Shown: positions 15,016 to 57,671, counted from the first letter of the stretch. The stretch is DNA of 64,000 nucleotides from Candidatus Multivoradales bacterium (GCA_965223855.1 CBDCXM010000009.1:320001-384000); one strand, 5' to 3'. Translations and numbers: made by a program. Notes: generated from the letters alone by a model not told the origin.

Positions 15016-15017
15016 TT

Positions 15018-38421: not shown

Positions 38422-38465
38422 GCTCGACCCGAGGGGTCCCCATCCGACGCCCAGGGCACCGTCAA

Positions 38466-41026: not shown

Positions 41027-41144
41027 GGCGTCTCTCCGTCCGGAGGCGAGGCTACCGCCGTCTCAACTCCCGGCGCCAGTACCGCGGGTGGGGTTGTCGT
41101 CCCCGGGACCGGGGGTGCCCGCCCGCGAGGATCTATCGACCTGC

Positions 41145-42545
41145 TCAGTCCCCCCGGGTCTCGCGCTCCTGGAAGCGCTCGGCGAGCGAGCGCAGGAAAC
41201 CGCTGACCCACGGCTTGATGGCGTCGAGCTCCTCGAGCAGCTGGTCGCGGCTGACCCGCTCGACGACCGTCTCTTCGAGCGTCACGACGCTCGCGGTGCG
41301 CGGCTCCGAGGTCATGATCGCCGTCTCGCCGAAGCACTCGCCCGGCCCGATGGTGCGGAGCGACACCTTCTCCCCGTCGATCTCCTTGAACACCTCGCAC
41401 GAGCCGCTGGCGATGATGTAGGCGTGCTCGCCGGGGTCCCCCTCCCGCATCAGCAGATGCCCCGCCTCGAAGGTCTCGAGCGGCAGGCTGCCGCCGCGCA
41501 TGAAGCCGACGATGTCCTGACGCAGCTCGACGACCGTCTGCTGCCTGTCCTCGGGTTTGCGCGCCATCGCTTTCTCGAGGATCCGCACCAGCTCGCGCGG
41601 TGCTCCGGCATCGTCCGGCAGCGGGGTGAAGTGGCGCTGGCGGGCCCGCAGGATCACCGTCTCGCTGGTGCGCCCCTCGTAGGGCGGCCGGCGGGCGACG
41701 AGGAAGTAGAGCATCGCGCCGACGGCGAAGATGTCCGCCCGGGCGTCCATCTCTCCCCCGGCCGCCTGCTCGGGCGACATGTAGCCCGGGGTACCGATGA
41801 CCCTCCGCCCCCAGATCCGGGTGAACGTGCTCGACACCGGGTCGTCGATCTTCGCCAGCTCGCCGTCGGGGTCCGCCAGCCTCGCCAGCCCCCAGTCGAC
41901 CAGGTAGACCTCGCCGAACTCCCCCACCATGACGTTCTCCGGCTTGACGTCGCGATGGACGACCCCTCGCTTGTGGGCGAAGGCGAGGGCGTTGCAGACC
42001 TTGACGACCACCTCCAGGAGGTCGAAGAGGGCGCCCCGCTCGATCGGCCCGGGCGGCAGCTCACGGACGAGCTCGGCGTAGGTCCGCCCCTCGAGGAGCT
42101 TCATCGTGAAGTGGAGCCGCCCGTCCTCGGTCCTTCCCAGATCGTGGACCGGCACGATGTTGGGATGCTGCAACTGACCGGTGATCTGAGCCTCCCTCAG
42201 GAACGACTGGACCGCCTGGCGTTCGTCCTCCATCTCCGTCCGCAAGAGCTTCCGCGCCAGCCGGCGCCTCAGGGTGCGGTCGTGCAGCAGCTCGACGATC
42301 GCCATCCCGCCGCTGCCGATCTCCTCGCCCGTCTCGAAGCGCTCCTCGTCAGGCGGCAGGACGTTGGCCACCAGATCCGCCTTCGCCCGTTCGTCGAGCC
42401 GTTCCGGGGGGTCGTCGCGGGAACCGAGGAGACGCTTGAACCAACCCTTCCGCGCACCGGAACCCTCCACGCGCGTCCCCTCGAGCACGGTCGCCGTACC
42501 GCCGTGTGTGCCCGATCCGGAACCGCTGGAGCGACCTTTCGTCAC
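41145..42545 (-). CDS. Cytoplasmic Ser/Thr kinase with C-terminal cyclic-nucleotide-binding domain
   Basis: IGSGGM, HPNIVP, HRDVKPEN, VDWG, GTPGYMSPEQ; CNB motifs EGDPG..AYII.SG and FGETAIMTSEPRTASV. Confidence 0.92.
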   Translation of the reverse strand: MTKGRSSGSGSGTHGGTATVLEGTRVEGSGARKGWFKRLLGSRDDPPERLDERAKADLVANVLPPDEERFETGEEIGSGGMAIVELLHDRTLRRRLARKLLRTEMEDERQAVQSFLREAQITGQLQHPNIVPVHDLGRTEDGRLHFTMKLLEGRTYAELVRELPPGPIERGALFDLLEVVVKVCNALAFAHKRGVVHRDVKPENVMVGEFGEVYLVDWGLARLADPDGELAKIDDPVSSTFTRIWGRRVIGTPGYMSPEQAAGGEMDARADIFAVGAMLYFLVARRPPYEGRTSETVILRARQRHFTPLPDDAGAPRELVRILEKAMARKPEDRQQTVVELRQDIVGFMRGGSLPLETFEAGHLLMREGDPGEHAYIIASGSCEVFKEIDGEKVSLRTIGPGECFGETAIMTSEPRTASVVTLEETVVERVSRDQLLEELDAIKPWVSGFLRSLAERFQERETRGD

Positions 42546-42648
42546 CGGCGAATCGTATCAACGGCTTCGCCCCACGACTGTGGCAAACGAGGCTTCTCTC
42601 GCGACCTGCGCCAGGTCGTCGTCTCCCCGTCTCGTAACATGGCCGACA

Positions 42649-44826
42649 GTGAAGAAACGAGCCAAGGCCGGGGCTCCGAGCGCCCTGCGCGACTGGGCGC
42701 CGGTGGGCCTTTCGCTGGTGCTCCTCGTCGCCGCTATCGTCGCGACGGTCGCCGAGCCGACCGCGATGACGACCCTGCGTCACGCGGCGTTCGACGCCTA
42801 CCAGCGCCTGCAGCCCCGCGAGTACCGGCCGGCCCCGGTGCGGGTGATCGACATCGACGAGGAGAGTCTCGACCGGCACGGCCAGTGGCCGTGGCCGCGG
42901 ACGACGCTCGCCACGTTGATCGAACGGCTCGACGAAGCCGGAGCGCGCTCGATCGCCCTCGACGTCATGCTCGCCGAGCCGGACCGCACCTCGCCACAGC
43001 TCGCGCTCGAGAGTTGGGCCGCGGACCCGGCCGTCCGGGACCTGGTGGCGCGCCTGCCCGATCACGACGAGGCTCTCGAGAAGAGGCTCGCCGCCTCGCC
43101 GGTAGTCACCGGCTTCATCCTCGATCAGGAGACCCAGGGAGAGACGCCGCTCGAGAAGGGGAGGATGGTGCTCGCCGGCGATCCGGCCGCCGCCTTCCTG
43201 CCGCCGTTTCGCGGTGCCGTCACCTCTCTGCGAGCGTTCGAGGCCGCGGCGGCGGGCAACGGTGCCCTCAACATGATCCCGAGCAACGACGGCATCGTCC
43301 GTCAGCTGCCCCTGTTGCTCGGCCACGGCGGAGCGGTGCGGCCCGGTCTGGCCGCCGAGGCTCTGCGGGTCGCCGAGGGCGCCGACAACTACGTCGTCAA
43401 GGCGTCGGGGGCGAGCGGCGAGGGGCGCTTCGGCGGCCGCACCGGCATTGTCAACGTGCGGATCGGCGACCTCGAGCCGATCGTCACCGACGCGCGCGGC
43501 GCTGTCTGGCTCCACTACTCGGACCCGGTCCCCGAGCGCACGCTCCCGGCCTGGAAGGTGCTGGCGGGCGACGTCCCGGAAGGCGCTCTCGAAGGGGGCA
43601 TCCTCTTCCTCGGCACCTCCGCCGCGGGCCTCCACGACCTGCGCCTCGACCCACTCGGCCGGATCGCCCCGGGAGCAGAGGTGCACGCCCAGGGGATCGA
43701 GCAGATCCTGCAGGGGACCTATCTGACGAGGCCCGACTGGGCGCGGGCGGCCGAGATCCTCTTCATGGTGGCGATGTGGTTCGTGCTCGTCGCGCTGATC
43801 CTGCGCTTCGGCGCGCTGCCGGCGGCGGTGATCGGCATCGCGACGATCGCCGCCGCCTACCTCGGCTCGTGGTTCGCTTTCGATCGTCTGCGGCTGCTGC
43901 TCGATCCAACCTTTCCCTCGCTGTCGGCGCTGTCGATCTACTTTGTCTGCTCGGTGGCGCAGCACTGGCGCGCGGAGCGCGATCGCACCTGGATCCGCGA
44001 CGCCTTCTCGAGCTATATCTCGCCCAATCTCGTCCGGCACCTGATCGACAACCCCGGCGATCTCGCTCTCGGCGGCGAGCGACGCGAGTGCAGCTTCGTG
44101 ATGACCGACCTCGAGTCGTTCACCACACTGGTCGAGAACCTCGAACCGACGGTCGCCGTCAGCCTGCTCAACGAGTACCTCGACGGCATCGTCGACATCG
44201 CGCTGGCGCGCGACGGCACCATCGACCGCATCGTCGGCGACGCGGTAGCGGTGATGTTCTCGGCGCCGGCGGTGCAGCCCGACCACGCCGAACGCGCCGT
44301 CGCCTGCGCCCTCGAGATCGACGCGTTCGCCCGGCGCTTCAGCGCCGCCAGGGGCGAGCAGGGGGTCGAGGTCGGGCGGACGCGGATCGGCGTCAACACG
44401 GGCGTCGTCACCGTCGGCAACGTCGGCGGCGACCGGATCGTCGACTATCGTGCCCTCGGCGATCCGGTCAACACGGCCGCACGCCTCGAGACGGTCAACC
44501 GACACCTCGGTACCAACGTCTGCGTGAGCGCGGCGACCGTCGCCGCCTGCCCCGACTTCCACGGCCGCCCGATCGGACGCCTCCTGCTCAAGGGGAAATC
44601 CGAGGCGGTCGAGGCGTTCGAGCCGCTGTCGCGGGAAGAGGCGGCGGGGGCTTCGAACACGGCCTATCTGCGGGCGTTCGCCCTGATGGAGGAGGAGGCG
44701 GCGGAGGCCCCCGCCGCCTTCGACCGACTGCGGCAGCAACACCCCGACGACCCCCTGGTCGCCCTCCACGCCGATCGCCTCGCCGCCGGCGAGACCGGCT
44801 CGACCATCGCCTTCTCCGAGAAGTAG
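42649..44826 (+). CDS. CHASE2-domain class III nucleotidyl cyclase
   Basis: IDIDEESL..HGQWPWPR, DGIVRQLP, PGAEVHAQ (CHASE2); three TMs; catalytic TDLESFT, DRIVGD, GVNTG, GDPVNTAARLE. GTG start at 42649 inferred. Confidence 0.92.
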   Translation: MKKRAKAGAPSALRDWAPVGLSLVLLVAAIVATVAEPTAMTTLRHAAFDAYQRLQPREYRPAPVRVIDIDEESLDRHGQWPWPRTTLATLIERLDEAGARSIALDVMLAEPDRTSPQLALESWAADPAVRDLVARLPDHDEALEKRLAASPVVTGFILDQETQGETPLEKGRMVLAGDPAAAFLPPFRGAVTSLRAFEAAAAGNGALNMIPSNDGIVRQLPLLLGHGGAVRPGLAAEALRVAEGADNYVVKASGASGEGRFGGRTGIVNVRIGDLEPIVTDARGAVWLHYSDPVPERTLPAWKVLAGDVPEGALEGGILFLGTSAAGLHDLRLDPLGRIAPGAEVHAQGIEQILQGTYLTRPDWARAAEILFMVAMWFVLVALILRFGALPAAVIGIATIAAAYLGSWFAFDRLRLLLDPTFPSLSALSIYFVCSVAQHWRAERDRTWIRDAFSSYISPNLVRHLIDNPGDLALGGERRECSFVMTDLESFTTLVENLEPTVAVSLLNEYLDGIVDIALARDGTIDRIVGDAVAVMFSAPAVQPDHAERAVACALEIDAFARRFSAARGEQGVEVGRTRIGVNTGVVTVGNVGGDRIVDYRALGDPVNTAARLETVNRHLGTNVCVSAATVAACPDFHGRPIGRLLLKGKSEAVEAFEPLSREEAAGASNTAYLRAFALMEEEAAEAPAAFDRLRQQHPDDPLVALHADRLAAGETGSTIAFSEK

Positions 44827-44827
44827 C

Positions 44828-45685
44828 TCAGCGCTCGGAGGCGGCTTCGATCCGCCGGGCCTGCTCGAGCTGCGCCTCGATGTTGGCGAGCCAGGCACGG
44901 CCGTCGGCGGTGCGCGCCAGGAGTTGCATCGCCGGCTCGCAGTAGCGCTGGACGATCTTCGAGAAGAAGTGCGGGAAGTCCGCTTCGAGGTCCCGCGGGC
45001 TACCGTAGCCGAGGCGTTCATTGACGCCCGTTTCCTCGAACTCGTAGTAGAGCGCCGGGTAGCGGCGGCGGGCGTGCGGCTCCGCCACCTGCCCGAGCAG
45101 ATCGGCGGCGCGCGCGAGCCCCGGGAGGTCTTCGACCTCCTGGTAGGCGTCCTTTTCGGGCACCGGGAAACGGGTCCGATCGATGCAGGCGGTCATCCGC
45201 TCGACGTCGAGCAGCGGATGGCTCGCGAATCGCTCGCAGACGAACTGGATGGCGCGATCGACGTGGTAAGGGCCGAGAGCGGCGTCGGTCGCCTCGAGGG
45301 GAAGCTCGACCACCGCGTCGCCGATCCCGGTCGCTCGGCGACCCGGGTCGTCACCGCGGCACAGATCCGGCACGTAACCGATGTCGTGGCACAGGAGCGA
45401 TGCGAGGACGTCCAGGCGATCGCAGGCCGGCACGGTTCCGCTCCGGTCGAGCCCTTCGAGGACCGCTTTGCCGACGAGGGTGACGAGCACCGTGTGGTGA
45501 GCGTTGTGGTAGAGCGCGTTGCACGAGGCCAGCCGCCCCAGCACCTCGACCGCGATCTCCCGCAGCGCGGCCGCATGCTCCCCCGCTTCGGGATCGGCCG
45601 CGAGAAAGCCCGCCTCCAGCCGCTCGGCGACGAGTTCGACGAGGGCGGCGGAAGGCTCGAACGATGGCGCCCCGCCGCCGATCAG
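44828..45685 (-). CDS. HD-superfamily metal-dependent phosphohydrolase, putative cyclic-nucleotide phosphodiesterase
   Basis: LYHNAHH, LCHDIGY, YHVDR, AADL motifs. The frame is open upstream of the GTG at 45544 to a CTG at 45685 that overlaps the ompA-family stop; start inferred. Confidence 0.78.
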   Translation of the reverse strand: MIGGGAPSFEPSAALVELVAERLEAGFLAADPEAGEHAAALREIAVEVLGRLASCNALYHNAHHTVLVTLVGKAVLEGLDRSGTVPACDRLDVLASLLCHDIGYVPDLCRGDDPGRRATGIGDAVVELPLEATDAALGPYHVDRAIQFVCERFASHPLLDVERMTACIDRTRFPVPEKDAYQEVEDLPGLARAADLLGQVAEPHARRRYPALYYEFEETGVNERLGYGSPRDLEADFPHFFSKIVQRYCEPAMQLLARTADGRAWLANIEAQLEQARRIEAASER

Positions 45686-46356
45686 CGCACCCTGACGACG
45701 ACCCTGCGATTCCGCGGTTCGCGCACCCCGTCTCCCGTCGGCACCGCCGGTTGCGATTCACCGAACGCCTCGATGGCGATCGCCGCTGCAGGGACACCGG
45801 CCTCGATCAGCCTGTCGCGCACCGCTTCGGCCCGTCGCCGCGACAGGCCGTCGTTGAGCGTCTCGGTCCCCGAAGTGTCGGTGTGACCGGCCACCCGGAT
45901 CGCCGCAGTCGCACGCTGTCGGAGGTCTTCGAGCAGCTCGTCCATCGCCCCGTCCGCCCCGCCCGCCAGCCGGGTCGTGCCGAGCTCGAAGAGGACGGTC
46001 CAGTCCGTCGGAGCGGGAGGCTCGTGCTCGATCGCCGGAGAAAAGCCGAGCTCGAGCCCGTCGACCTCCACCGTGCGGATGTCACTCAGATCGTCGAAGG
46101 AGACCGCCTCGTAGGCGGAGTCGAGCAGCGCGCTCTCGCCGTCGCGCGTCACTTCGATCGCGCCGACAGTGCCGTCCTCGTCGGGCAGCAGGACGACGTA
46201 CTGGCGCCATTCGGGCTCCTCCTCGACCGGCTCTTCGCCACCAAGGAGCGGCAGCACCACCGAGTCAGGCGGCCACCAGTGGACCGGCACCCGCTGCGCG
46301 GCACAACCTGGAAGCAGGAGAGCTCCGATCAGCACGACCGCCCGCGCTCGGTTCAT
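45682..46356 (-). CDS. OmpA-family peptidoglycan-binding lipoprotein
   Basis: Lipobox LPGC; VAGHTD..G....N..LS.RRA..V, FGESQP, NRRV. Confidence 0.92.
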   Translation of the reverse strand: MNRARAVVLIGALLLPGCAAQRVPVHWWPPDSVVLPLLGGEEPVEEEPEWRQYVVLLPDEDGTVGAIEVTRDGESALLDSAYEAVSFDDLSDIRTVEVDGLELGFSPAIEHEPPAPTDWTVLFELGTTRLAGGADGAMDELLEDLRQRATAAIRVAGHTDTSGTETLNDGLSRRRAEAVRDRLIEAGVPAAAIAIEAFGESQPAVPTGDGVREPRNRRVVVRVR

Positions 46357-46799
46357 TCGGCTGCGCTCTCCAACCTCACGAGAAATCGCGTGCCTCGGAT
46401 CCCGATCGTGCCGACCGGGGTCTCCACGTTCGCCGATTCGGGCGACAGCTTGGCGATCAGGCCGGAGACGTAGAGCAGCGTGCCGCGGGCGAGGCGGGAG
46501 AGGAACGCCCCCTCGCTCGCACCCGCCTCGTAGACGTACTCGTCGATCGTGAGACTGGTGTCGGGGCCGATCGACAGTCGGGAGTCGTCGATGAACAGCA
46601 CCCCCAGGGCGCCGTCGGATCCGGTCTCCAGGGTGTCGTCCTGGAACACCGCGGCGCCCAGCTCGGCAGCGCTGCGCTCCCCGCCCGACACGATGAAGGC
46701 ACTTCCACTCAACTCCTTGACGTGGCCGACGGGCTCGGACGCCGCGACGGCACCGGCCGAGAGGACCACGAGAACCAACCAGAGACGGCGATGCATCAC
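46353..46799 (-). CDS. Small periplasmic FecR-domain protein
   Basis: Signal peptide; D.LETG.DG...VLFIDDSRLSIGPDT, ETPVGTIGIRGT; 4-nt overlap with the ompA-family gene. Confidence 0.85.
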   Translation of the reverse strand: MMHRRLWLVLVVLSAGAVAASEPVGHVKELSGSAFIVSGGERSAAELGAAVFQDDTLETGSDGALGVLFIDDSRLSIGPDTSLTIDEYVYEAGASEGAFLSRLARGTLLYVSGLIAKLSPESANVETPVGTIGIRGTRFLVRLESAAE

Positions 46800-46925
46800 C
46801 TCTCCCTTCCCTTCAGATGGCTGTTACACGACCCTCACAGAATAGCACCGCCACCTCGCCGGGCAGCTGCCGACAGCGCCACACAGGTCGAAAAATCGCT
46901 ATGACAGACTACCGACACCCTACCC

Positions 46926-48737
46926 ATGGCAGATATGGCAGGTCACACCACAGGCCGCGTCCTCCTCGCCATCGCGCTCGTCGCGGTGATGGCGCCCGCT
47001 GCCTGGTCCCAGGAGGAGACGGCGCCGGTCCGCACCGCCGACGAGGAGCACGCGGCGCTCTTCCTCGAAGACCGCTTCCCGGCCGCCACGACCTGCGCCA
47101 CCTGTCACCCCGACCACTACCGCGAGTGGTCGGTGTCGCCGCACGCCTACGCGCAGATGAGCCCCGTTTTCAACGCCATGCACGGGACGATTCTCAAGCT
47201 GACCAACGGCACGAACGGCGACTTCTGCATCCGCTGCCACACGCCGGTGGGGATGAACCTCGGCGAGCCCGAGTTCATGAGCAACATGGACCGCCACCCG
47301 ACCTCGCGGGAAGGGGTCACCTGCATCGTCTGCCACCGGGTCAATCGCGCCTACGGCAAGCTCAGCGGACGGCTGGCGATCGTCGAGGGCGACGTCTTCG
47401 ACACCGTCTACGGACCGACCGGAGGCGAGGAGCTCGAGCGGGTGATCGACAGCTCCGAGTTTCGCGTCAACACCGAGCGGGGGCAGGCCGGGCGGGCGAT
47501 CCACGCCGAGGCGGAGCCGTTCTTCCAACTCCGAGAGGCGGGCATCTGCGGAACCTGCCACGACGTCAACCTGGTGAACGGCTTCCGTCTCGAGGAGGCG
47601 TTCAGCGAGTTCAAGACGTCACCGGCCGCGCGCCGGGGGGTGACGTGCCAGGACTGCCACATGGGGACGGAGCCGGGAATCGCCTCCGGGTTCCGCCAGG
47701 GGCCGGCGGCAATGATCGGCACCCGGCCGACCGCCGAGCGCCGGCTCACGAATCACATGTTCATCGGGCCGGATTACTCGATCGTCCACCCGGGGATCTT
47801 CCCGCACAACACCCGGGCCTCCGAACTGGCGACGATCCGCGACTGGCTCCAGTTCGACTGGGAAGCGGGCTGGGGCACCGACGCCTTCGAGCTCGAAGCG
47901 CCGGAGGACTACGAGTTCCCCGAGGTGTGGGCCTCCGCCGACGACCGCTACGACGCCCGCGACATCCTCGACGCCAACCTCACGCTGCTCGACGAGGCCA
48001 ACCAGGCGCGCCTCCAGCTGCTGCGCGCCGGTTACGTTCTCGGGGACACGAAGGTCGAGAAGAAGGGTCGCGGGCTCGCCTTCTCGATCGAAGTCCGCAA
48101 CGCCACCGACGGTCACGGCGTGCCGACCGGCTTCGACGCCGAGAGGCTCGTCTGGCTCGAAGTGACGGTCGCGGACGCGGACGGCGAGGTCGTCTTCCGC
48201 TCCGGCGATCTCGACCCGAACGGCGACGTGCGCGACCTGCACTCCCTCTACGTCCACAACGGCGAGCTGCCTCTCGACCGCTACCTCTTCAGCCTCCAGT
48301 CGAAGTTCCTGACCCGGATGGTGCGGGGCGGCGAGCGCGAGCAGGTGCTGGCGATCAACTACTCGCCCGACCCTCTGCCGTTCCTGCGACCCTCGGTCAC
48401 CTCGACGATCCTCACCGGGAGACCTCGCGGCGCCCGCAAGCACAAGCAGAACCTCGCTCCGCTCGGTCACCGCGTGGCGCGCTACGAGGTGCCGGCGGCC
48501 AAGCTCACCGGGCGCCCGCCGTACCGGGCCACGTTCCGGCTCAAGGCGGCGATGGTGCCGGTGAATCTGGTCCACGAAATCAAGGACGTCGGGTTCGACT
48601 ACTTCATGAGCGCTCGCGACGTCGCCGAGCGAGTGGTGGCAGGCCATCTCGTCCTCTGGGAACGACAGCTCGCCCTCGAAGACGGTGCCGAACCGCCCCA
48701 AGCCGAAGAAGCCGTGGATGCCGCCGCGTCGCCCTAG
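46926..48737 (+). CDS. Exported pentaheme cytochrome c (c554/c552-like)
   Basis: Signal peptide; CATCH, CIRCH, CIVCH, CGTCH, CQDCH; heme-free C-terminal half. Confidence 0.9.
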   Translation: MADMAGHTTGRVLLAIALVAVMAPAAWSQEETAPVRTADEEHAALFLEDRFPAATTCATCHPDHYREWSVSPHAYAQMSPVFNAMHGTILKLTNGTNGDFCIRCHTPVGMNLGEPEFMSNMDRHPTSREGVTCIVCHRVNRAYGKLSGRLAIVEGDVFDTVYGPTGGEELERVIDSSEFRVNTERGQAGRAIHAEAEPFFQLREAGICGTCHDVNLVNGFRLEEAFSEFKTSPAARRGVTCQDCHMGTEPGIASGFRQGPAAMIGTRPTAERRLTNHMFIGPDYSIVHPGIFPHNTRASELATIRDWLQFDWEAGWGTDAFELEAPEDYEFPEVWASADDRYDARDILDANLTLLDEANQARLQLLRAGYVLGDTKVEKKGRGLAFSIEVRNATDGHGVPTGFDAERLVWLEVTVADADGEVVFRSGDLDPNGDVRDLHSLYVHNGELPLDRYLFSLQSKFLTRMVRGGEREQVLAINYSPDPLPFLRPSVTSTILTGRPRGARKHKQNLAPLGHRVARYEVPAAKLTGRPPYRATFRLKAAMVPVNLVHEIKDVGFDYFMSARDVAERVVAGHLVLWERQLALEDGAEPPQAEEAVDAAASP

Positions 48738-48741
48738 GGGC

Positions 48742-50163
48742 TTGCTGAGGAACCCTCGTGGGTCGCGCGCCGGCCTCATCTTCGCCGCCGCGACGCTGAT
48801 GGCGACGGCGATCGGCGCCGCCGAGCCTCCCACCGAGGGAGACGGCGAGAGCGCGAGCCGCCTCACCGACGAGGCGATCCCACTGCAGGTCGATGCGGTA
48901 CCCGAGCGGCCGAAGCCGCCCCTCGAGCTCGGCGAACCGTTCCTCGGCACCGGCACCCTGCGCCCCGGCTTCCGACTGCCGACCGGCGCCGTGTGGCAGC
49001 CGGCGCTCGTCGCTTTCGGCTCCCTGAGGACCGCGGCCCAGAGCTTCGACTCCGGCGCCGGCAGGGTGAGCGAGCTCGTCGCCCGGTTGGACCTCTTCGC
49101 CAACCTTCAGCTCTCGGGAACGGAGCGCGTGGTCGTCGGCTTCCGGCCGCTCGACCGCGACGGTCGCTTCACCTCGTACGTCTTCTCGAGCGACGTCCCG
49201 GGGATCGAGGACGGGTCCCGCGACGAGTGGAACGGCGAGGTGACGAGCGTCTACTTCGAGGGAGACTTCGGCGAGATCTTCCCCAATCTCTCGAAGGACG
49301 ACTTCAGCCGCACCGACGTAGGTTTCTCGGCCGGCCGTCAGCCGCTGATCTTCCAGGAAGGGATGCTGATCAACGACTCGATCGACGGCATCGGGTTGAC
49401 CCGCAACACGCTTCAGCCGGGCAATCTGTCGAACTTCCGCGCCACGCTCTTCCTCGGCTTCGACGAGGTCGGCCGGCCCGACCGCATCGACGACGACGCG
49501 CGGCTCGTCGCGCTCCTGACCTCGACCGATACCAGGAGGTCGACCTGGGACGTCGATCTCGCGTGGGTGGAATCGCAGGTCGAGGGAGACCTCCTGGCCG
49601 GCGGGATCAGCGCGATTCAGAGACTCGGGCACTACAACACCGCGTTTCGACTGCTCGGCTCTTCAGCCCTCGACCGGGAAAGCGACCTCGTCTCCGACGG
49701 CTGGCTGCTGCTCAACGAGGTGTCGTGGACGCCGCACCACAGCCACGACCTCGTCTACGTCAACACCTTCGTCGCCGCCGACCGCTTCTCGTCCGCGGCG
49801 CGCGGGCCGAGCACCGGAGGCCCGCTCGGGCGCGCGGGCATCAACTTCGCTGCCGTCGGGCTGGGCAACTACGGCGCGGCGCTGAGCTCGGAGGCCGAGG
49901 ACGTCGCCGGCGCGGCGGTCGGCTACCAGCGCTTCTTCGATCACACCCGCAAGCAGCTCCTCGTCGAGGCTGGCGCGCGTCTCGGCACCCGTTCCGGGAG
50001 CGCCGACTCCGCCGCCGTCACCGTGCGGTTTCAGACCGCGCTCAAGCGCCACTACGTGCTGGTGCTCGATGCCTTCGGCGGCTACCGCGACCCGGGACCC
50101 GCAGCACCCGGCGGCCGGCAGGAGCTACTCGGTGCGCGGGTCGAACTGGTGACGAAGTTCTGA
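48742..50163 (+). CDS. Putative outer-membrane beta-barrel protein
   Basis: Signal-like N-terminus, alternating hydrophobic beta-strands, C-terminal ARVELVTKF with terminal Phe. TTG start inferred. Confidence 0.72.
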   Translation: MLRNPRGSRAGLIFAAATLMATAIGAAEPPTEGDGESASRLTDEAIPLQVDAVPERPKPPLELGEPFLGTGTLRPGFRLPTGAVWQPALVAFGSLRTAAQSFDSGAGRVSELVARLDLFANLQLSGTERVVVGFRPLDRDGRFTSYVFSSDVPGIEDGSRDEWNGEVTSVYFEGDFGEIFPNLSKDDFSRTDVGFSAGRQPLIFQEGMLINDSIDGIGLTRNTLQPGNLSNFRATLFLGFDEVGRPDRIDDDARLVALLTSTDTRRSTWDVDLAWVESQVEGDLLAGGISAIQRLGHYNTAFRLLGSSALDRESDLVSDGWLLLNEVSWTPHHSHDLVYVNTFVAADRFSSAARGPSTGGPLGRAGINFAAVGLGNYGAALSSEAEDVAGAAVGYQRFFDHTRKQLLVEAGARLGTRSGSADSAAVTVRFQTALKRHYVLVLDAFGGYRDPGPAAPGGRQELLGARVELVTKF

Positions 50164-52202
50164 TGGCGGCCGCCCGCCTCCTCGGCCCGGCGGTGGCCGG
50201 TCTGCTCGCGATCGGCCCGGTGGCGGCGGCCGAGACCCCGGCGGCGCGCGACCCGGCGAAGATCGTCACCGCCGAGGCGTGCGGCGAGTGCCATCTCGAG
50301 GAGTTCGAGGTGTGGAAGACGACGCCTCACGCACTCGGCTTCAAGTCGCTCCACCGCAGCGCCGACGCTGAAGAGATCGCGCGCAAGATGGGTCATCGGC
50401 TCATCAAGCGCGACAGCCCCTGCCTCGAATGTCACTACACGACGGCACTCGACGGCGAGCGCGAACGCGCGGTGTCGGGAGTGTCGTGCGAGTCGTGCCA
50501 CGGCGCCGGCCGCGACTGGATCGAGGTACACAACGACTACGGCCCCGACGCCACCTTCGCCACCGAGACCGACGCCCACCGCGAGCAGCGAATCGCCGCC
50601 AGCCGAGCGGCCGGGATGCTGCGGCCGACCGACCTCTACGAGGTGGCCGCCAACTGCTTCGGCTGCCACACGGTGCCCAACGAGGAGCTCGTCAACGTCG
50701 GCGGCCACACGACGGGCAGCATCGGCTTCGAGCTGGTCGAGTGGTCGCAGGGCGAGATCCGGCATAACTTCGTCGCGGCGCAGCGGGGCGGGAGCAAGGA
50801 GAACGTCGAGCGCTCCGACGAGCGCAAGCGGCTGATGTACGTCGTCGGCCGATCGCTCGAGCTCGAGTACGCGCTGCGCGGACTCGCCAAAGCGACCGAG
50901 GACGGGGCCTACGCGAAGTCGATGATCCGCAAGGTTCGCAACGCGGTTGCCGAGGTCGGCGACATCGCGGCGGTCACGACCCTCGCGCCGGTCAACACCA
51001 TGACCGCCGCGGTGCGCGAAGCCCGGGTCAGCCAGGGGAACGCAGCCGAGCTGCTGGCCGCCGCCGATCGGGTGAGCGCGGCGACCAGAGCGCTGCTCCG
51101 GGAGCCGGCCGGCGCGCAGGTGGCGGCCCTCGATCCTCTGAGACTCGGCCAGCCGCTCCCGGGGACGGATCAACTCGCCGAGGACGAGCGCGAGGGCCTC
51201 GAGGACCCCGTCGAGGGCGCGGCCGAGACCGTCCCGGCGGCCGTCGCCGCGGCGGCCGCACCCGGAGAGCCCGGCGCCACCACCGCCGGCGCCGGCAGCG
51301 GTCGGAGCGTGCCCGACTACGCTCGCAAGACCCGGCTGCGACCGACCTCGCCGCACCGCACGATCGACGCCGGCGCGTGCAGCGGCTGCCACGAGGAGCA
51401 GAACGCCTGGTGGTTCGACGACCCTCACTACGCCGCCGCCGAGCCGTTTCACGAGGGCGATCCGAAGAACGCCCAGATCGCCCGGCTCTACGGGCTCGCG
51501 GCCGGCGAGGCGACCAGGGGAAACCAGCTGTGCATGGACTGTCACGGCACGGTCGTCACCGGCAAGGAGCGCCGCGAAGTGTGGGACGGGGTGAGCTGCC
51601 AGAGCTGCCACGGTGGCGCCGCCGACTACCTCGAGCCGCACAAGGAAGGGGACGAGACGGCCGGAGATCAGCGCAGCGGCTACCTCGCCGCACTCGGTCT
51701 CGGCATGAAGGAGCTGCGTCGTCCCGAGGTGCGGGCGCGCAACTGCGCGAGCTGCCACTACATCACCGACCCGCGTCTGATCTCCGCCGGGCACCCGACC
51801 GGCAGGGACTTCCGGATCGTCGAGCGGATGCCGCGGATTCGCCACTGGGAGCGGGCCGATCTCGACGCCTCCGCCCTCGAGAGCGCCTTCCGCGACGAGG
51901 TGGCACGGCGAGGAGCGATTCCCGAGGTTGTCCTCGCCTCGCTGCCGGCGGGAGAGTCGCCGCTCGCCGCCGCTGCGACGGCGACGCGGACCCGCCGCGC
52001 GGGAGGGGGCTCCCGCCCCGTCAGAGCCCTGCCGCCGCGACAGCGACCGGTCGATCCGATCGCCATCCCGGACCCTGCGAGCGTCGGCCCGCTCGACCTC
52101 CCCCCCTTCGACCCTCCGGCGGACGACGCGCCGCTCGAGGAGGTCCTGGCGCTGATTCAGCAGCGACTCGCCCTCATCTACGAAAACGTTCAGGAGCCGT
52201 GA
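50163..52202 (+). CDS. Exported octaheme cytochrome c (two tandem tetraheme c554-like domains)
   Basis: ATG overlaps the upstream TGA; CGECH, CLECH, CESCH, CFGCH / CSGCH, CMDCH, CQSCH, CASCH. Confidence 0.9.
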   Translation: MAAARLLGPAVAGLLAIGPVAAAETPAARDPAKIVTAEACGECHLEEFEVWKTTPHALGFKSLHRSADAEEIARKMGHRLIKRDSPCLECHYTTALDGERERAVSGVSCESCHGAGRDWIEVHNDYGPDATFATETDAHREQRIAASRAAGMLRPTDLYEVAANCFGCHTVPNEELVNVGGHTTGSIGFELVEWSQGEIRHNFVAAQRGGSKENVERSDERKRLMYVVGRSLELEYALRGLAKATEDGAYAKSMIRKVRNAVAEVGDIAAVTTLAPVNTMTAAVREARVSQGNAAELLAAADRVSAATRALLREPAGAQVAALDPLRLGQPLPGTDQLAEDEREGLEDPVEGAAETVPAAVAAAAAPGEPGATTAGAGSGRSVPDYARKTRLRPTSPHRTIDAGACSGCHEEQNAWWFDDPHYAAAEPFHEGDPKNAQIARLYGLAAGEATRGNQLCMDCHGTVVTGKERREVWDGVSCQSCHGGAADYLEPHKEGDETAGDQRSGYLAALGLGMKELRRPEVRARNCASCHYITDPRLISAGHPTGRDFRIVERMPRIRHWERADLDASALESAFRDEVARRGAIPEVVLASLPAGESPLAAAATATRTRRAGGGSRPVRALPPRQRPVDPIAIPDPASVGPLDLPPFDPPADDAPLEEVLALIQQRLALIYENVQEP

Positions 52203-52203
52203 C

Positions 52204-53838
52204 GTGAGCGAGCCGTTCGAACCGGGCAAGACCGTGCTCAAGCAGATCGAGCAGTACGGCGACCGCTGGAGCGCCTACGGCGCGAGCGAGAGCATCGTCT
52301 CGATCTCCGACAGGCTCACCCTCGAGGAGATGAGGGAGATCGACGTCTTCTCCGACTACGACGACTCGTTCCTCGAGAAGATCCGCTCCGACGTCTCGGT
52401 GGCGGTGTGGAAGCCGGACTCGGTGCTGTTCGAGGAAGGGAGCTACATCGACCTCGCCTTCGTCGTCCTCGAGGGAGAGGTCGAGACCTTCGTCGCCGGG
52501 ATCGGCAAGGGTGAAGCGACGCCGCAGCCGATCTTCGACGCCACACGCACCGTGCTGGGCGACGCCGAGACCACCCTGGCGGCCGAGCGCACCACACTGA
52601 TGCCGACGCTCTCGCCGCCGAGGCGGGCGCCGAAGGAGATCACGCTCCTCGCTTCGATGGACTTCGACATGCCGCGCGAAGGCACCGTGAGACTCGGCCC
52701 CGGCGAGGTGTTCGGCGAGATCGGCGCCCTGAGCGGCTGGCCTCAGTCGGTGACGGCACGGACCGTGACCGAGTGCCGTCTGGTGCAGATCCGGATCAAC
52801 GCGCTCAGGCTGATGAAGCGCAAGTCCGCGGCACTCAAGGAGCGCCTCGACGAGCGCTACCGCGAGCGCTCGCTGAGCGCGCAGCTGCGGACGACGCCGC
52901 TCCTGAGGCGCTCGAGCCCGCTGGTGATCGAGGCGCTCAAGGACGAGGTCGAGCTCGTCTCCTGCGAGCCGGGAGAGACGGTGCTCACCCACGGCGACGA
53001 GCCCGACGCGCTCTATCTGGTGCGCTCCGGCTTCCTCAAGCTGCTGCAGCCGCTGGCCGACGGTCAGATCGCCGTCTCGTACCTGTCGAAGGGGATGACC
53101 CTCGGCGAGGCGGAGCTGCTGCTGCCCGAGATCGACGGCTGGCAGGTCAGCGCCGAATCGGTCGAGTACAGCGAGCTGGTGCGGATCCCGGCACCGGTCT
53201 TCGACAATCTCCTGCGCAACGAGCCGCTGATCGAAGCCGATCTTTGGGCGTCGGCTCAGGAGCGCATCCGCGAGTCCGGCTTCGCGCGGCGGCACATCGG
53301 TCACGCGGAGTTCCTCCAGGAGGCGCTCGACACCGGGCTCGTTCAGGGCAACAGCATCCTGGTGATCGACCTCGAATCCTGCACCCGATGCGACGACTGC
53401 GTGCGCGCCTGTGCCGACACGCACGAGGGGCGCCCCCGCTTCGTGCGCGAGGGAGACAAGTACGCCAACCTCCTGATCGCCAAGTCCTGCTACCACTGCC
53501 GGGATCCGGTCTGTCTCGTCGGCTGCCCGACCGGCGCGATCCATCGCGCCGGGCTGAGCGATGTCGTCGAGATCGAAGACGAAATCTGTATCGGCTGCGC
53601 GAGCTGTTTCCGCAACTGCCCGTACGACGCGATCGTCATGCACGAGACCGGCGACCTGTGGCCGGACGACATGATCCCGGTCGGGCTGCGAGGGCGCGAT
53701 CGCCAGGTCGCCAGCAAGTGCGACCTTTGTGCCGACACCGGTCACGGGCCGGCGTGTGTCAGCAACTGCCCTCAGGGTTGCGCCTACCGGGTCGGATCGC
53801 TGGAGGAGTTCCAACGGCTGATGAGCGGGGAGAGCTAG
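52204..53838 (+). CDS. Tandem cNMP-binding-fold domains fused to a DmsB/NrfC-type 4x[4Fe-4S] ferredoxin
   Basis: LFEEGS..DLAFVVLEG / LGPGEVFGE; HGDEPDALYLVRSG / GMTLGE; CTRCDDCVRAC, CYHCRDPVCLVGCP, CIGCASCFRNCP, KCDLC..GPACVSNCP. Confidence 0.92.
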   Translation: MSEPFEPGKTVLKQIEQYGDRWSAYGASESIVSISDRLTLEEMREIDVFSDYDDSFLEKIRSDVSVAVWKPDSVLFEEGSYIDLAFVVLEGEVETFVAGIGKGEATPQPIFDATRTVLGDAETTLAAERTTLMPTLSPPRRAPKEITLLASMDFDMPREGTVRLGPGEVFGEIGALSGWPQSVTARTVTECRLVQIRINALRLMKRKSAALKERLDERYRERSLSAQLRTTPLLRRSSPLVIEALKDEVELVSCEPGETVLTHGDEPDALYLVRSGFLKLLQPLADGQIAVSYLSKGMTLGEAELLLPEIDGWQVSAESVEYSELVRIPAPVFDNLLRNEPLIEADLWASAQERIRESGFARRHIGHAEFLQEALDTGLVQGNSILVIDLESCTRCDDCVRACADTHEGRPRFVREGDKYANLLIAKSCYHCRDPVCLVGCPTGAIHRAGLSDVVEIEDEICIGCASCFRNCPYDAIVMHETGDLWPDDMIPVGLRGRDRQVASKCDLCADTGHGPACVSNCPQGCAYRVGSLEEFQRLMSGES

Positions 53839-53841
53839 GCC

Positions 53842-54672
53842 TTGACTCACCGCCACCGCAGCGCGCGCCGGTCGAGGGCGGCCGTGATCGCGGCCTCCGT
53901 CGCCGCGCTCGCAGTGGTCGTCTACGTCGGCGGCGCGACCCTGTGGGAGGTGGCTCCGGGAACTCCGTTGAGCATCGGCTTCGGTGTCGCGGCGGCGATC
54001 CTCCTTCTCGGGGCAGCCCTCTACGGCGCGCGGCGGCGACTCGTACGCCTCGCCTCGCGACGCAGCCTCGGGACAGCCTCGAGCTGGCTCGCCTTTCATC
54101 TCTACGGCAGCCTCCTCTTCCTGCTGCTCGTGCACCTCCACTCCGGCTTCGCCGTTCCGAGCGAAGGGGTGACCTGGTGGCTGTGGGCACTCTCCTGGTG
54201 GACGGTCGTCACGGGGGTCGCCGGTCGGCTGCTGCAACTGTGGATCCCCAGAGCGCTCGGCTCGGGCCTGTCGGTGGAGGTGCTCTACGAGCGCATCCCC
54301 GAGCTGATCGAGGAGCTGCGCGAACGGTCGGAGACTCTCGCCGCCACTTGCGACGAGTCGGTGCAGAATCTCTACTCCAACCAGGTGGCGAAGCAGCTCA
54401 CGGGGCCGAGGCGCCGCTGGATCTACTTCGTCGATCCGGCCGGCGGAGCGCGGTCGCAACTGCGTGAGTTCGACTACCTGCGCACGATGCTGCCGCCGGA
54501 GGAGCAGGACAAACTCGATCGACTGGCGGGGTACCTGCGCACGAAGCTCGAATTCGACGCTCACTACACCCTGCAGGGAGTGCTGCGCTCGTGGCTGTGG
54601 ATCCACGTCCCGCCGTCGCTGGCGGTGCTCGCCCTGGTCATCGTCCACGTCTTCGCGGTCACCTACTACTGA
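53842..54672 (+). CDS. Five-TM membrane protein, putative di-heme cytochrome b
   Basis: Two helices each carry a His pair 14 residues apart: FHLYGSLLFLLLVHLH and IHVPPSLAVLALVIVH. Confidence 0.75.
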   Translation: MTHRHRSARRSRAAVIAASVAALAVVVYVGGATLWEVAPGTPLSIGFGVAAAILLLGAALYGARRRLVRLASRRSLGTASSWLAFHLYGSLLFLLLVHLHSGFAVPSEGVTWWLWALSWWTVVTGVAGRLLQLWIPRALGSGLSVEVLYERIPELIEELRERSETLAATCDESVQNLYSNQVAKQLTGPRRRWIYFVDPAGGARSQLREFDYLRTMLPPEEQDKLDRLAGYLRTKLEFDAHYTLQGVLRSWLWIHVPPSLAVLALVIVHVFAVTYY

Positions 54673-54687
54673 TGGCGGACTCACACG

Positions 54688-56268
54688 ATGGCGGCTAAGC
54701 GTCGGCAGGGGAAGGGCTCCTACGGCCGCTGGCAACTGCCGGTGGCGAGGCGCTATCTCGTCCCGGGGTCGAGGGGGCGTCGGATGGTCCTGGCGGCCGC
54801 GCTCTTCGCGCTCATCCTGGCCGCGGTGGCGGCAGACTTCCGGCTGCGGCGCGGCAAGGCGCTCTCCAAGGGCGCGCTGTCGTCGCACCACGCCCTCCAG
54901 GAGCAGGACTGCGCCTCCTGCCACGTCGAGTTCGATGCGGTGAGCGACGACCGCTGCTCCTCGTGCCACGAGAAGTTCGGCGATCAGCTCGGCGTCTACA
55001 CCTTCGCCGCTCACTACCTGTACCGGTCGACCGACTTCCAGCGCGTCGTCGCCTCGGAACACGAGCTGCCGTGCTCCTCCTGCCATCTCGAGCACGCGGG
55101 GCGCGAAGCTCAGATCACCCGCGTACCGGATTCGCGCTGTCTCGACTGTCACGAATACGGCGCCTTCGGCGACGACCACCCGGAGTTCGCCTTCGCGCGG
55201 GAGGAGGCCGCCGAGGCGGGCGGCCTGCACTTCCCTCACATCGAGCACATTCGCGAAGTGATGGCGCAGCAGAACCTGCACGACGTCGAGCGGTCGTGCC
55301 TCTACTGTCATCGGCCGGAGGCGGACGGGCGCTCGTTCCAGCCGATCGAGTTCGATCTCCATTGCGACTCCTGCCACCTCACGACGACTACGGCGACGCC
55401 GCGGCTGCCGATCGCAGGAGAGGCGGGCGAGGAGGATGGTCCCGGAGTCGAGACGCTGGAAGCAATCCGCGCTCGCGGCGGCCCGGGCACGGAGTGGGCC
55501 TACTACACGAACCCCAACGAGTTCCGCCGCACCGGGCCGCGGATCCTCAAGTCGCCGCTGCATCACGAGGATCCATGGATTCTCGACAACCTGCGCCGGC
55601 TGCGGCGCGAGCTCTATCCCGACGCCGGGCTCGCCGACCTCCTGACCGCCTCCCCCGATGCCCCGGTGCATCGATTGAGCGAGGTCTACGGCGAGGCGAT
55701 CGCCACCCTGCAGTCACAGGTCGACGGCCTGCGTGCCCGCCCCGAGCCGGAGATCCAACGTGACCTCGCGAAGCTCTCCGCGCTCCTGACCGAGGCGGAG
55801 CGGAGCCTCCTCGATCCCTATACCCCCCTCGACGAGACCGAGTTCCAGCTCGCCCTCGAGCGACCCGATCCGAATCTGTCGGCGGAGCAAGTCGACTCGA
55901 TCGACCGCCTCGCCGACGAGCTGACGACGCCGTGCCGCCAGTGCCACATCGTCGAGAACGCCACCCTCGCCCGGGTCCAGACCGATCAGCGGACTCTCCT
56001 GAGCGCCGAGTTCGACCACCGCGCCCACATCCTCCAGCGGCGCTGTCTCGACTGCCATCGCGAGATCCCCGTACTCGAGCACCTGAACTCCCCCGAGCCG
56101 GTCGATCCCGCGATCGACAACGCCGGCATTCACAACCTGCCGCGCATCGAAGCGTGCCGGGAGTGCCACCAGCCGCGCCAGGTCTCGGACCGCTGCGTCA
56201 CCTGCCACGTCTTTCATCCGGACAAGAACCGGCGATCGGAACTGCTGCTCTACCTGGAGACCGGCTGA
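54688..56268 (+). CDS. Membrane-anchored decaheme cytochrome c (c3-like)
   Basis: N-terminal TM; CASCH, CSSCH x2, CLDCH x2, CLYCH, CDSCH, CRQCH, CRECH, CVTCH; distal-His motifs FPHIEH and FDHRAH. Confidence 0.9.
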   Translation: MAAKRRQGKGSYGRWQLPVARRYLVPGSRGRRMVLAAALFALILAAVAADFRLRRGKALSKGALSSHHALQEQDCASCHVEFDAVSDDRCSSCHEKFGDQLGVYTFAAHYLYRSTDFQRVVASEHELPCSSCHLEHAGREAQITRVPDSRCLDCHEYGAFGDDHPEFAFAREEAAEAGGLHFPHIEHIREVMAQQNLHDVERSCLYCHRPEADGRSFQPIEFDLHCDSCHLTTTTATPRLPIAGEAGEEDGPGVETLEAIRARGGPGTEWAYYTNPNEFRRTGPRILKSPLHHEDPWILDNLRRLRRELYPDAGLADLLTASPDAPVHRLSEVYGEAIATLQSQVDGLRARPEPEIQRDLAKLSALLTEAERSLLDPYTPLDETEFQLALERPDPNLSAEQVDSIDRLADELTTPCRQCHIVENATLARVQTDQRTLLSAEFDHRAHILQRRCLDCHREIPVLEHLNSPEPVDPAIDNAGIHNLPRIEACRECHQPRQVSDRCVTCHVFHPDKNRRSELLLYLETG

Positions 56269-56606
56269 TGGGAGCGCGGCTGCTGTGCAAGACCGGCAAG
56301 CTGGAGGGGCTCGAGTTCTCGCTCGGCGAAGAGACGACCGTGGGTCGCCGCCGCTCGAGCGACGCGGTGGTCGACGCCCCCGGGGTTTCGGGCACGCACG
56401 CGACGATCCGCTGGTCGGAGGAGGGCGGCCGCTACGAGCTCGAGGACCTCGGCAGTACCAACGGCACCCTGCTCGACGGCGTCCCCGCCCAGGGCATCGA
56501 GCCTCTCGGGACCCTGCACGTCATCACCTTCGGGCGGCACCACAGCTTCATCTTCGTGTGGGACGGCGCGACCCCGACCGGCACGACGAGCGCCGAGGAG
56601 GAGTAG
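56268..56606 (+). CDS. Stand-alone FHA domain protein
   Basis: TGATG overlap with the upstream gene; TVGR, VSGTHA, DLGSTNGT. Confidence 0.88.
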   Translation: MGARLLCKTGKLEGLEFSLGEETTVGRRRSSDAVVDAPGVSGTHATIRWSEEGGRYELEDLGSTNGTLLDGVPAQGIEPLGTLHVITFGRHHSFIFVWDGATPTGTTSAEEE

Positions 56607-56660
56607 GCCGCTCTCCCCCCCTCGGCCTCGGCCCCTCGGAGAACTCCGAGCCCGGGCTCG

Positions 56661-57110
56661 TCAGGACTCTCGCGAATCGGGCGGCGAATCGGGCTTGGCC
56701 TTCTTGAGGAAGCGCAGCGTCAAGAAGTTGGCGAGCGTGAGCGCAACGGCGATCTCGAAACGCCCGACCGCGACCGCCACGCCGACCGCGGCGGTACTCC
56801 AGATGCTCGCCGCGGTCGCCGTGCCGTGTACGGTCACTCCGCGCTTGACGATCGCCCCACCACCGAGGAAACCGACCCCGGTCAGCAGCCCCTGGATGAT
56901 CCTGCCGAGTTCCGGGCTGGCGTTGCCGAGCACCGAGCGCGCCAGCAGCACATAGGCGGTGCTCGCCATCGCCACCAGCGGGAAGGTGCGCAACCCGAGA
57001 CTGCGCTCCTCCTGTTCGCGGTCCCACGCGATCGGCAACGCAAGCAGAAACGAAGCGCCGAGCAGCAGGAGGTGCTCCAGGACGCTCGCCGGATCGACCA
57101 GTTCGCTCAA
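56661..57110 (-). CDS. MgtC/SapB family membrane protein
   Basis: GLRTFPLV, GVGFLGGGAI, GTATAASIW; TTG overlaps the MarR stop, AGGAGA RBS. Confidence 0.88.
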   Translation of the reverse strand: MSELVDPASVLEHLLLLGASFLLALPIAWDREQEERSLGLRTFPLVAMASTAYVLLARSVLGNASPELGRIIQGLLTGVGFLGGGAIVKRGVTVHGTATAASIWSTAAVGVAVAVGRFEIAVALTLANFLTLRFLKKAKPDSPPDSRES

Positions 57111-57607: not shown

Positions 57608-57671
57608 TCATTAGTGTAAGAACCGTTACAGCAGTACCGCTTGCTTCAAGAACAGTCTAAAGGAGCCCCCC

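Follow-up and report, generated by a model that had tools for sequence, protein, structure and literature searches.

A reduced variant of the ptd porin-cytochrome cluster next to a probably independent cyclic-nucleotide signalling cassette in a Candidatus Multivoradales genome

Do twelve contiguous genes that pair second-messenger signalling with multiheme cytochromes form one system or two? The question arises at positions 41145-56606 of a 64,000-nt stretch of Candidatus Multivoradales bacterium (GCA_965223855.1 CBDCXM010000009.1:320001-384000), hereafter the window, to which all positions refer unless another locus is named. A sequence-only reading of this locus had proposed that it makes, degrades and reads its own cyclic nucleotide monophosphate (cNMP) and uses it, together with recognition of phosphothreonine (pThr) by FHA domains, to gate an electron wire between cytoplasm and outer membrane. 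We find that the + strand operon at 46926-56606 is a reduced variant of ptd, a gene cluster that is already named and uncharacterised, and that the twelve genes are probably two independent modules abutting in this genome, namely the proposed ptd wire (module A) and a proposed cNMP signalling cassette (module B, 41145-46799). On this account the link to cNMP is an accident of the local neighbourhood and not a trait of the family.

Reading frames were picked by third-position GC and then checked with Pfam and NCBIfam. The GC content of the window is ~70%, third-position values of 0.85-0.93 back the gene frames of the locus, and all twelve contiguous genes were found with the domains given in the sequence-only reading. 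The operon consists of seven + strand genes that encode a PtdA-like pentaheme cytochrome c (46926-48737), a PtdB-like predicted outer-membrane beta-barrel with the C-terminus ...TKF (48718-50163), a PtdD-like periplasmic octaheme cytochrome c (50163-52202), a PtdE-like protein with two cyclic nucleotide-binding (CNB)-like domains and a four-cluster [4Fe-4S] domain (52204-53838; Pfam cNMP_binding twice, Fer4 families), a PtdF-like membrane protein (53842-54672), a PtdG-like decaheme cytochrome c (54688-56268) and a single-FHA protein (56268-56606; Pfam FHA, E 7e-15). The junctions range from a 20-nt overlap to a 15-nt gap, and the cytochromes carry 5, 8 and 10 CxxCH motifs, respectively; the tight spacing with overlaps or gaps of at most 15 nt and the total of 23 motifs had been read correctly.

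In the full-text collection that was searched, the name ptdABCDEFG was found in one paper only, a preprint (bioRxiv 10.1101/2023.11.21.568154) whose available excerpts describe a putative porin-cytochrome complex with a function unknown there. The excerpts list a porin (PtdB), an oxidoreductase of the FAD/NAD(P) kind (PtdC), a tetraheme protein (PtdD), a CNB protein with 4Fe-4S clusters (PtdE), a ferric-reductase-like membrane protein (PtdF) and a decaheme protein (PtdG); PtdA is placed in the NrfA COG and likened to T. tepidum c552. The cluster is reported there from Alpha- and Gammaproteobacteria, Nitrospirales and Planctomycetes, and is noted in nitrite oxidisers. Compared by description only, six of the seven components of the window operon agree with these excerpts, as does the gene order, and the porin gene directly follows the pentaheme gene in both. 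The differences are several: a PtdC-type flavoprotein is missing among the twelve genes of the window, PtdD has eight hemes instead of four (a variant, not an exact match), and PtdE has cysteines for four clusters where the excerpts state two. Moreover, an FHA gene closes the window operon, whereas the words 'FHA' and 'kinase' do not occur in the excerpted text, and the relatives of the window operon have a different flavoprotein, thioredoxin-reductase-like and with FHA domains, at the 3' end. We call the window operon a reduced variant because the flavoprotein, two-FHA protein, kinase and PP2C genes of its relatives are absent at the locus. The statement that no characterised system has such an architecture holds; the operon is, however, described and named in the preprint. 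The conserved link of ptd to FHA, kinase, PP2C and FHA-flavoprotein genes was not found in print in the literature searches made, and neither 'cyclic nucleotide' nor 'FHA' occurs in the text of a preprint on extracellular electron transfer in peat or of a bioanode paper.

How widespread is the cluster? Relatives of PtdE were sought in a collection with one genome per species, which gave at least 588 matching stretches, at least 549 of them encoding a relative. The best 80 of these at least 549 loci were kept with flanks of up to 10 kb and searched by tblastn with the window proteins; in the counts that follow, the denominator is the number of loci long enough to show the gene. PtdF lies directly downstream of PtdE in 70 of 74 loci and PtdG further downstream in 63 of 68; a PtdD or other multiheme gene lies directly upstream in 60 of 66; and in 57 of 68 the decaheme gene has an FHA gene after it. 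The pair of pentaheme PtdA and barrel PtdB is present in 22 of 47 loci. This reflects two forms of the cluster, a long one with the outer-membrane pair and a 7-8-heme protein, and a short one without the pair and with a 3-4-CxxCH protein that matches the C-terminal half of the window octaheme (query residues ~390 onward). Heme counts in homologues were taken from + strand open reading frames (ORFs) complete within the locus. By record title, the taxa comprise Acidobacteriota (Thermoanaerobaculia, Vicinamibacterales, Holophagae), Zixibacteria, KSB1, Gemmatimonadota, Nitrospirota, Ignavibacteria and Bacteroidota (Chitinophagales, Cytophagia, Rhodothermales/Salinibacter). Gene order, heme counts, Cys/His ligands and synteny are conserved across several phyla. 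Together with more than 2000 homologues of PtdE in protein databases (~60-66% identity), the at least 549 stretches show the reach of a widespread cluster.

The signalling genes do not share this distribution. Relatives of the cyclase, HD, OmpA and FecR genes were found in none of the best 80 ptd loci (0/80, even at E<=1e-3), and in 18 of the 22 long-form loci the sequence upstream of PtdA extends over at least 4.2 kb, so that a cassette placed as in the window would fit. The gene-neighbourhood search that the sequence-only reading had suggested thus found homologous cytochrome operons not to lie near cyclase genes, the outcome it had itself named as refuting its proposal. In addition, 40 related genomes were searched separately, of which 15 have a PtdE match at E<=1e-50, including one of the four of the same genus (completeness of the same-genus genomes 77-93%). 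HD, OmpA and FecR genes were found in none of 12 ptd loci of these relatives, and a weak cyclase-domain match lies 5.7 kb away in one of them; the 12 loci partly overlap the 80, and the two counts are not independent. Within the genus the modules are separate. Among the 40 relatives, orthologues of the HD protein (57% identity) occur only in G001 and G003, both without a PtdE match, whereas G004 has PtdE and no HD protein. The arrangement seen in the window, with the cyclase gene on the + strand and the HD, OmpA and FecR genes on the - strand, recurs in G003 and on a short contig of G001. In G003, the divergent neighbour of the cassette (L111:12053-14305) encodes a 750-residue protein with two cNMP_binding domains, an NTE P-loop and a patatin phospholipase domain, plausibly the cNMP effector of that cassette. 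Full-length orthologues of the kinase-CNB protein were found in two of the 40 relatives; the one in G022 lies 1.35 Mb from the ptd operon of that genome, beside a cyclase-domain gene. The kinase-CNB gene belongs to the signalling cassette and not to the cytochrome operon, and the cassette, with the kinase-CNB protein as its likely reader, is a self-contained signalling unit.

In the window, this unit consists of five genes. The first (41145-42545, - strand) encodes a Ser/Thr kinase with one CNB domain (Pfam Pkinase, E 6e-38; cNMP_binding, E 1e-23), which has a canonical Arg-bearing phosphate-binding cassette, FGE...PRTAS. It is followed by a CHASE2 protein with a class III cyclase domain (42649-44826, + strand, GTG start at 42649; Pfam CHASE2, E 1e-52; Guanylate_cyc, E 3e-16). 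Alignment to 2w01 and 3r5g shows that the metal-binding Asp as well as Asn and Arg are kept. The two substrate-specifying positions are Arg/Arg, where 2w01 and 3r5g have Glu/Gly or Lys/Thr, and the product nucleotide is not predictable. The HD-domain protein (44828-45544, - strand) matches the NCBIfam Npun_R2479 HD family (NF045583, E 8e-73) with 245 bits against a cutoff of 400 bits and has no Pfam match; it is a metalloprotein and possibly a phosphodiesterase. No paper with the term 'Npun_R2479' was found in a literature search. The remaining genes, both on the - strand, encode an OmpA-family peptidoglycan-binding lipoprotein with an LLPGC lipobox (45682-46356; Pfam OmpA, E 5e-18) and a small secreted FecR-domain protein (46353-46799; Pfam FecR, E 9e-10). 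On the periplasmic side, the latter is the likely partner of the CHASE2 sensor; a published precedent for genes of FecR-domain proteins next to those of CHASE2 sensor kinases is described in the excerpts of PMC5192318. All five genes of the proposed signalling half are in place; they do not form a single operon but three transcription units, namely kinase-CNB (-), cyclase (+) and FecR-OmpA-HD (-), in which the cyclase gene points away from the kinase-CNB gene and towards the HD gene. Between the FecR unit and the ptd operon lies a shared divergent intergenic region of 126 nt. A promoter and terminator scan of 41000-58000 gave sites no more numerous than in shuffled sequence. The sequencing runs listed for this organism, all from one study, included none of RNA.

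Could the ptd operon itself sense a cyclic nucleotide? PtdE is cytoplasmic, without a signal or Tat motif, and was compared in a set of 76 sequences (the window and the 75 of 80 loci with a stop-free match of more than 480 residues). Its 16 cysteines in four groups are invariant in 75-76 of the 76, and its Fe-S domain resembles the four-cluster DmsB/NrfC/HycB type. In the first CNB domain, Gln181 aligns with the phosphate-binding Arg of PKA RI-alpha; 73 of the 76 sequences have Gln here and none has Arg. For the second domain, the corresponding position was placed by motif at 315, and there, too, Arg does not occur in the set. Judged by these alignments, the CNB-like domains of PtdE appear to have no functional cNMP phosphate-binding cassette. 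A cyclic nucleotide that gates the wire, as had been proposed, is therefore supported neither by PtdE nor by the 80 related loci.

PtdF had been read as a His-paired membrane protein, and so it is: all 32 sequences compared keep four histidines, H86/H100 and H255/H269, which lie on two helices and are spaced i, i+14. The AlphaFold2 model (pLDDT 92) shows five transmembrane helices. Because the four-His pattern matches that of a bis-His di-heme b relay, PtdF is probably a transmembrane relay of this kind. The nearest clusters in the ESM Atlas are labelled 'ferric reductase like transmembrane component' (score 0.97), and there is no match to Pfam Ferric_reduct. A natural fusion of PtdE and PtdF exists (P0109, 826 residues) and argues for a PtdE-PtdF complex. 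A second long database protein, P0110 (822 residues), also matches PtdE.

At the other end of the putative wire, PtdA has a cleavable Sec signal peptide, no lipobox, no CxxCK motif and a conserved C-terminal domain of ~350 residues, for which no catalytic family was found in Pfam (the ESM Atlas gave only unnamed clusters). All 23 of 23 homologues have five CxxCH motifs. PtdA is the most conserved component, with a mean column identity of 62% and 57-77% identity in 19 of 20 homologues. It resembles T. tepidum c552 (5ze8; phmmer, E 5e-14) in three stretches that include a GH..PTG motif and the C-terminal domain, and it matches the NCBIfam family ExtKL with E 1.8e-9, below the cutoff. According to the excerpts of a cable-bacteria paper (PMC11976967), c552 and Geobacter ExtKL form one pentaheme family, which fits this sub-threshold match. 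PtdB belongs to no Pfam or NCBIfam family. Its AlphaFold2 model is all-beta (pLDDT 78, ~18-20 strands by our count), and the top Foldseek matches are the AlgE, MOMP and OprD/Occ barrels (E ~1e-12, TM ~0.56). A complex of barrel and cytochrome was modelled, as the sequence-only reading had suggested, and PtdA-PtdB reached 0.89 in three runs, the best of 3 controls having scored 0.00; the mark used for this score was attained by 58 of 80 solved complexes and by 2 of 110 mismatched pairs. At least 95% of contacts agree between the runs, with partner pLDDT of at least 87. The model supports, but does not show, binding of the two proteins. In it, PtdA residues ~459-516 contact nearly every PtdB strand, which suggests that a conserved PtdA segment fills the PtdB lumen as a plug. 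The two remaining cytochromes would lie between PtdA and PtdF. PtdD has a cleavable signal peptide and no lipobox, and its homologues (n=60) have 8 (23 sequences), 7 (9), 3-4 (27) or 10 (1) CxxCH motifs; no flavoprotein domain was found in the long PtdD-like ORFs of L079 and L053. PtdG has one N-terminal membrane anchor, and 57 of its 62 homologues have ten CxxCH motifs.

Most related clusters continue where the window operon ends. After the decaheme gene they encode a protein of ~300-380 residues with two FHA domains, and a flavoprotein of 760-795 residues, in which two FHA domains accompany a FAD/NAD(P) domain that resembles thioredoxin reductase/YpdA and the C-terminal domain has four cysteines that are conserved (44 sequences with at least 700 aligned residues; a Pfam Fer2 match in one of three examples tested). 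Of the 56 loci that extend at least 6.5 kb downstream, 45 have the FHA-flavoprotein, at which NAD(P)H electrons likely enter. Often a Ser/Thr kinase tailed by TonB_C or PEGA lies further on, sometimes a PP2C phosphatase; among the 48 loci that reach at least 9 kb downstream, 25 have a kinase and 9 have PP2C. Control by pThr is supported as a family trait of ptd clusters because 57 of 68 loci have an FHA gene behind the decaheme gene and because the FHA-flavoprotein, kinase and PP2C genes recur; this part of the sequence-only reading gained ground. The FHA gene of the window is real, but from the ATG at 56268 it encodes only 112 residues. These match residues 14-120 of a 369-residue relative, and the protein is a shortened form of the two-FHA protein of relatives. 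On its 3' side, opposite-strand MgtC-like and MarR genes stand in place of the genes found in relatives. In the window genome (92% complete) no orthologue of the flavoprotein was found, the best match having 30% identity over the N-terminal 250 residues only. We considered whether the operon is a decaying remnant and did not adopt this view; all seven frames are intact, with normal codon bias. Other arrangements exist among close relatives. The same-genus genome G004, the one with PtdE, has another reduced form (L108, 3508-6907): within 5 nt of the decaheme gene comes a kinase-TonB_C gene in convergent orientation, and neither an FHA gene nor a flavoprotein gene stands between them. In a genome of the same family (L102:2959-4779 and 4787-5692), the genes directly upstream of PtdA encode a DsbD-like thiol-disulfide transporter and a 301-residue Ser/Thr kinase that consists of the kinase domain only (Pfam) and is divergent from PtdA.

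From these components a path for electrons can be proposed. Cytoplasmic PtdE with its four [4Fe-4S] clusters would dock on PtdF, whose two bis-His b hemes would carry electrons across the inner membrane to the anchored decaheme PtdG. From there they would pass to the soluble octaheme PtdD and on to the pentaheme PtdA, whose conserved C-terminal segment would, in the model, sit inside the PtdB barrel of the outer membrane. In most relatives, NAD(P)H electrons would enter through the FHA-flavoprotein, and the two-FHA protein, the kinase and PP2C suggest pThr control. Module B would stand apart: its CHASE2 cyclase would have FecR and OmpA as partners in the periplasm, with an HD protein alongside and kinase-CNB as the reader. 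We favour outward flow, to an acceptor at or beyond the outer membrane, at about even odds. A more specific version is put forward tentatively, as a possibility we hold to be doubtful: ptd as a wire that does without quinone, is NOX-like where it crosses the membrane, starts at NAD(P)H, ends at the outer membrane and is pThr-gated at its input. The FHA domains of the flavoprotein and the companion FHA protein would respond to the kinase and PP2C of the cluster, and the window would hold a minimal form that has lost the input and gating module and is open to the neighbouring cNMP-responsive kinase. If true, a NAD(P)H-fed conduit switched by Ser/Thr phosphorylation would constitute a new route and a new type of control in extracellular electron transfer. 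As regards the sequence-only reading, its interpretation is partly supported. The wire is backed by the conservation of the seven genes as a unit, by the PtdF histidines and by the PtdA-PtdB model, and pThr control by the genes of relatives; cNMP gating is not supported.

Several points weigh against two independent modules and against the wire as drawn. The adjacency of the modules, with the 126-nt region between them, could reflect local co-regulation, and the 12 loci of relatives add less than a separate sample to the count of 80. Binding of heme b to PtdF is inferred, as are the route of the electrons and the direction of their flow. The PtdF model found no solved relative in a Foldseek search of the PDB (E<=0.001), and its VIA-align wide scores to cytochrome b561, STEAP, CybB and FdnI (Z 7.4-8.1; 7.6-8.1 for STEAP and cytochrome b561) are middling and common for helical bundles, the best score (Z 9.7) being to chemoreceptor sensor bundles. 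None of the three cytochromes has a lipobox and none is evidently surface-exposed, and PtdB resembles 18-stranded substrate channels (AlgE, OprD) and not the wide MtrB type. Finally, the window is without the presumed electron-input flavoprotein, and the operon may be fed differently or may be losing function.

Alternative explanations have to be seen against this background. An integrated model limited to this genome is very unlikely in our view: here an operon without its own kinase and flavoprotein would be controlled by the adjacent cyclase, with the signal running from cNMP through kinase-CNB and pThr to the FHA protein. It draws on the shared divergent region of the FecR unit and the operon, on the canonical Arg-bearing cassette of kinase-CNB and on the lack of a kinase in the window operon, as opposed to its presence downstream in about half of the related loci with sufficient sequence; a short kinase gene directly upstream of and divergent from PtdA in L102 and L016 offers a parallel. 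The four cassette genes are, however, absent from all 80 related loci, both the cassette and kinase-CNB are found elsewhere without ptd, and the CNB domains of PtdE are without the Arg. Kinases are also plentiful in this genome, with more than 25 other matches (31 to one query), two of which are 46-48% identical to the ptd-linked kinase of a same-genus genome. Signalling is likewise at the centre of the proposal that the cluster is mainly a redox sensor, which would report envelope redox conditions to FHA, kinase and phosphatase signalling in the cytoplasm instead of carrying respiratory flux. The density of FHA domains (the small protein has one or two, the flavoprotein two), the kinase and PP2C genes and the CNB-like ligand or interaction domains of PtdE are in line with it, yet 23 hemes, four Fe-S clusters and an outer-membrane complex would be a heavy investment for a sensor, and the flavoprotein suggests electron input at the substrate level; we regard it as highly improbable.

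Two further explanations keep the electron transfer and change its purpose or sense, and both are unlikely, to about the same degree. Electrons might flow inward: a donor outside the cell or in the periplasm, for example Fe(II), would supply them, and Fe-S and flavin carriers of the cytoplasm would receive them. The direction is not fixed by the sequences, and the cluster occurs in lineages labelled Nitrospirota, Gemmatimonadota and Salinibacter/Rhodothermales, many members of which are aerobes rather than metal reducers. However, the uphill reduction of NAD(P)+ from typical donors needs energy, and no coupling module is visible in the cluster. Alternatively, PtdA might be a periplasmic multiheme enzyme that acts on soluble nitrogen, sulfur or metal species, with PtdB admitting the substrate and the inner-membrane part supplying electrons. 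Its standing as the most conserved component would fit an enzyme, as would the best structural matches of PtdB, which are substrate channels, and the excerpts of bioRxiv 10.1101/2023.11.21.568154, with the placement in the NrfA COG and the presence of ptd in nitrite oxidisers. Against this, PtdA is without a CxxCK motif, its C-terminal domain was assigned to no catalytic family in the databases named above, and the modelled segment at ~459-516, touching nearly all barrel strands, suggests a plug rather than an open pore. We retain, as the probable account of the locus, a ptd wire and a separate cNMP cassette side by side.

The surroundings of the locus contain genes of other functions. Upstream of kinase-CNB (35967-41026) lie genes for argininosuccinate synthase, a Lyase_1-domain protein that is probably argininosuccinate lyase, a P_proprotein-domain protein and an FG-GAP repeat protein. 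At 56661-58610, on the 3' side of the operon, the ORF calls of the - strand MgtC-like and MarR genes overlap, and a + strand ORF of 323 residues matches no family. A second FHA-domain gene and a Ser/Thr kinase gene, both on the - strand, are found at ~14485-16472 of the window (G000:C9:334485-336472), ~25 kb upstream of the locus.

How does the locus compare with known systems? Geobacter ExtHIJKL, as far as described in the excerpts of PMC11976967, likewise has the gene of a c552/ExtKL-family pentaheme next to that of an outer-membrane barrel. Equivalents of the rhodanese-like ExtH and of ExtJ were not seen in the window, the window barrel matches no curated family, and the window cluster adds a dedicated inner-membrane and cytoplasmic module. 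In MtrCAB, PioAB and MtoAB, too, a barrel gene adjoins multiheme cytochrome genes, whereas insertion of the cytochrome in the barrel is for the window a matter of the model only. No window protein has an MtrB/PioB or MtrA match that reaches the cutoff, and the DmsE and OmcA/MtrC matches are far below theirs. The MtrB barrel has 26 strands, the window barrel ~18-20, and the window is without a surface lipoprotein cytochrome.

At the inner membrane, the closest likeness of PtdF is to NOX, STEAP and MsrQ (YedZ), with which it shares a cytoplasmic electron donor and, on two transmembrane helices, two His pairs spaced i, i+14. The PtdF model has five helices rather than six, and its donor would be a separate Fe-S protein and its acceptor a multiheme chain. 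The Tmc and Hmc complexes of sulfate reducers also combine cytoplasmic Fe-S proteins, a membrane b-type subunit and a periplasmic multiheme cytochrome c and need no quinone. Their subunits are not homologous to those of the window, with HmcB and DsrO giving only weak Fe-S domain matches, and an outer-membrane part as well as CNB and FHA modules are absent from these complexes.

For the signalling cassette, the counterpart is the BiofilmReg operon (PMC5192318, in excerpts), in which the gene of a secreted, peptidoglycan-binding FecR-domain protein also lies beside that of a CHASE2 membrane sensor. The output is a class III cyclase in the window and a histidine kinase in BiofilmReg, the peptidoglycan binder is a separate OmpA lipoprotein in the former and a LysM domain in the latter, and the window adds an HD protein.

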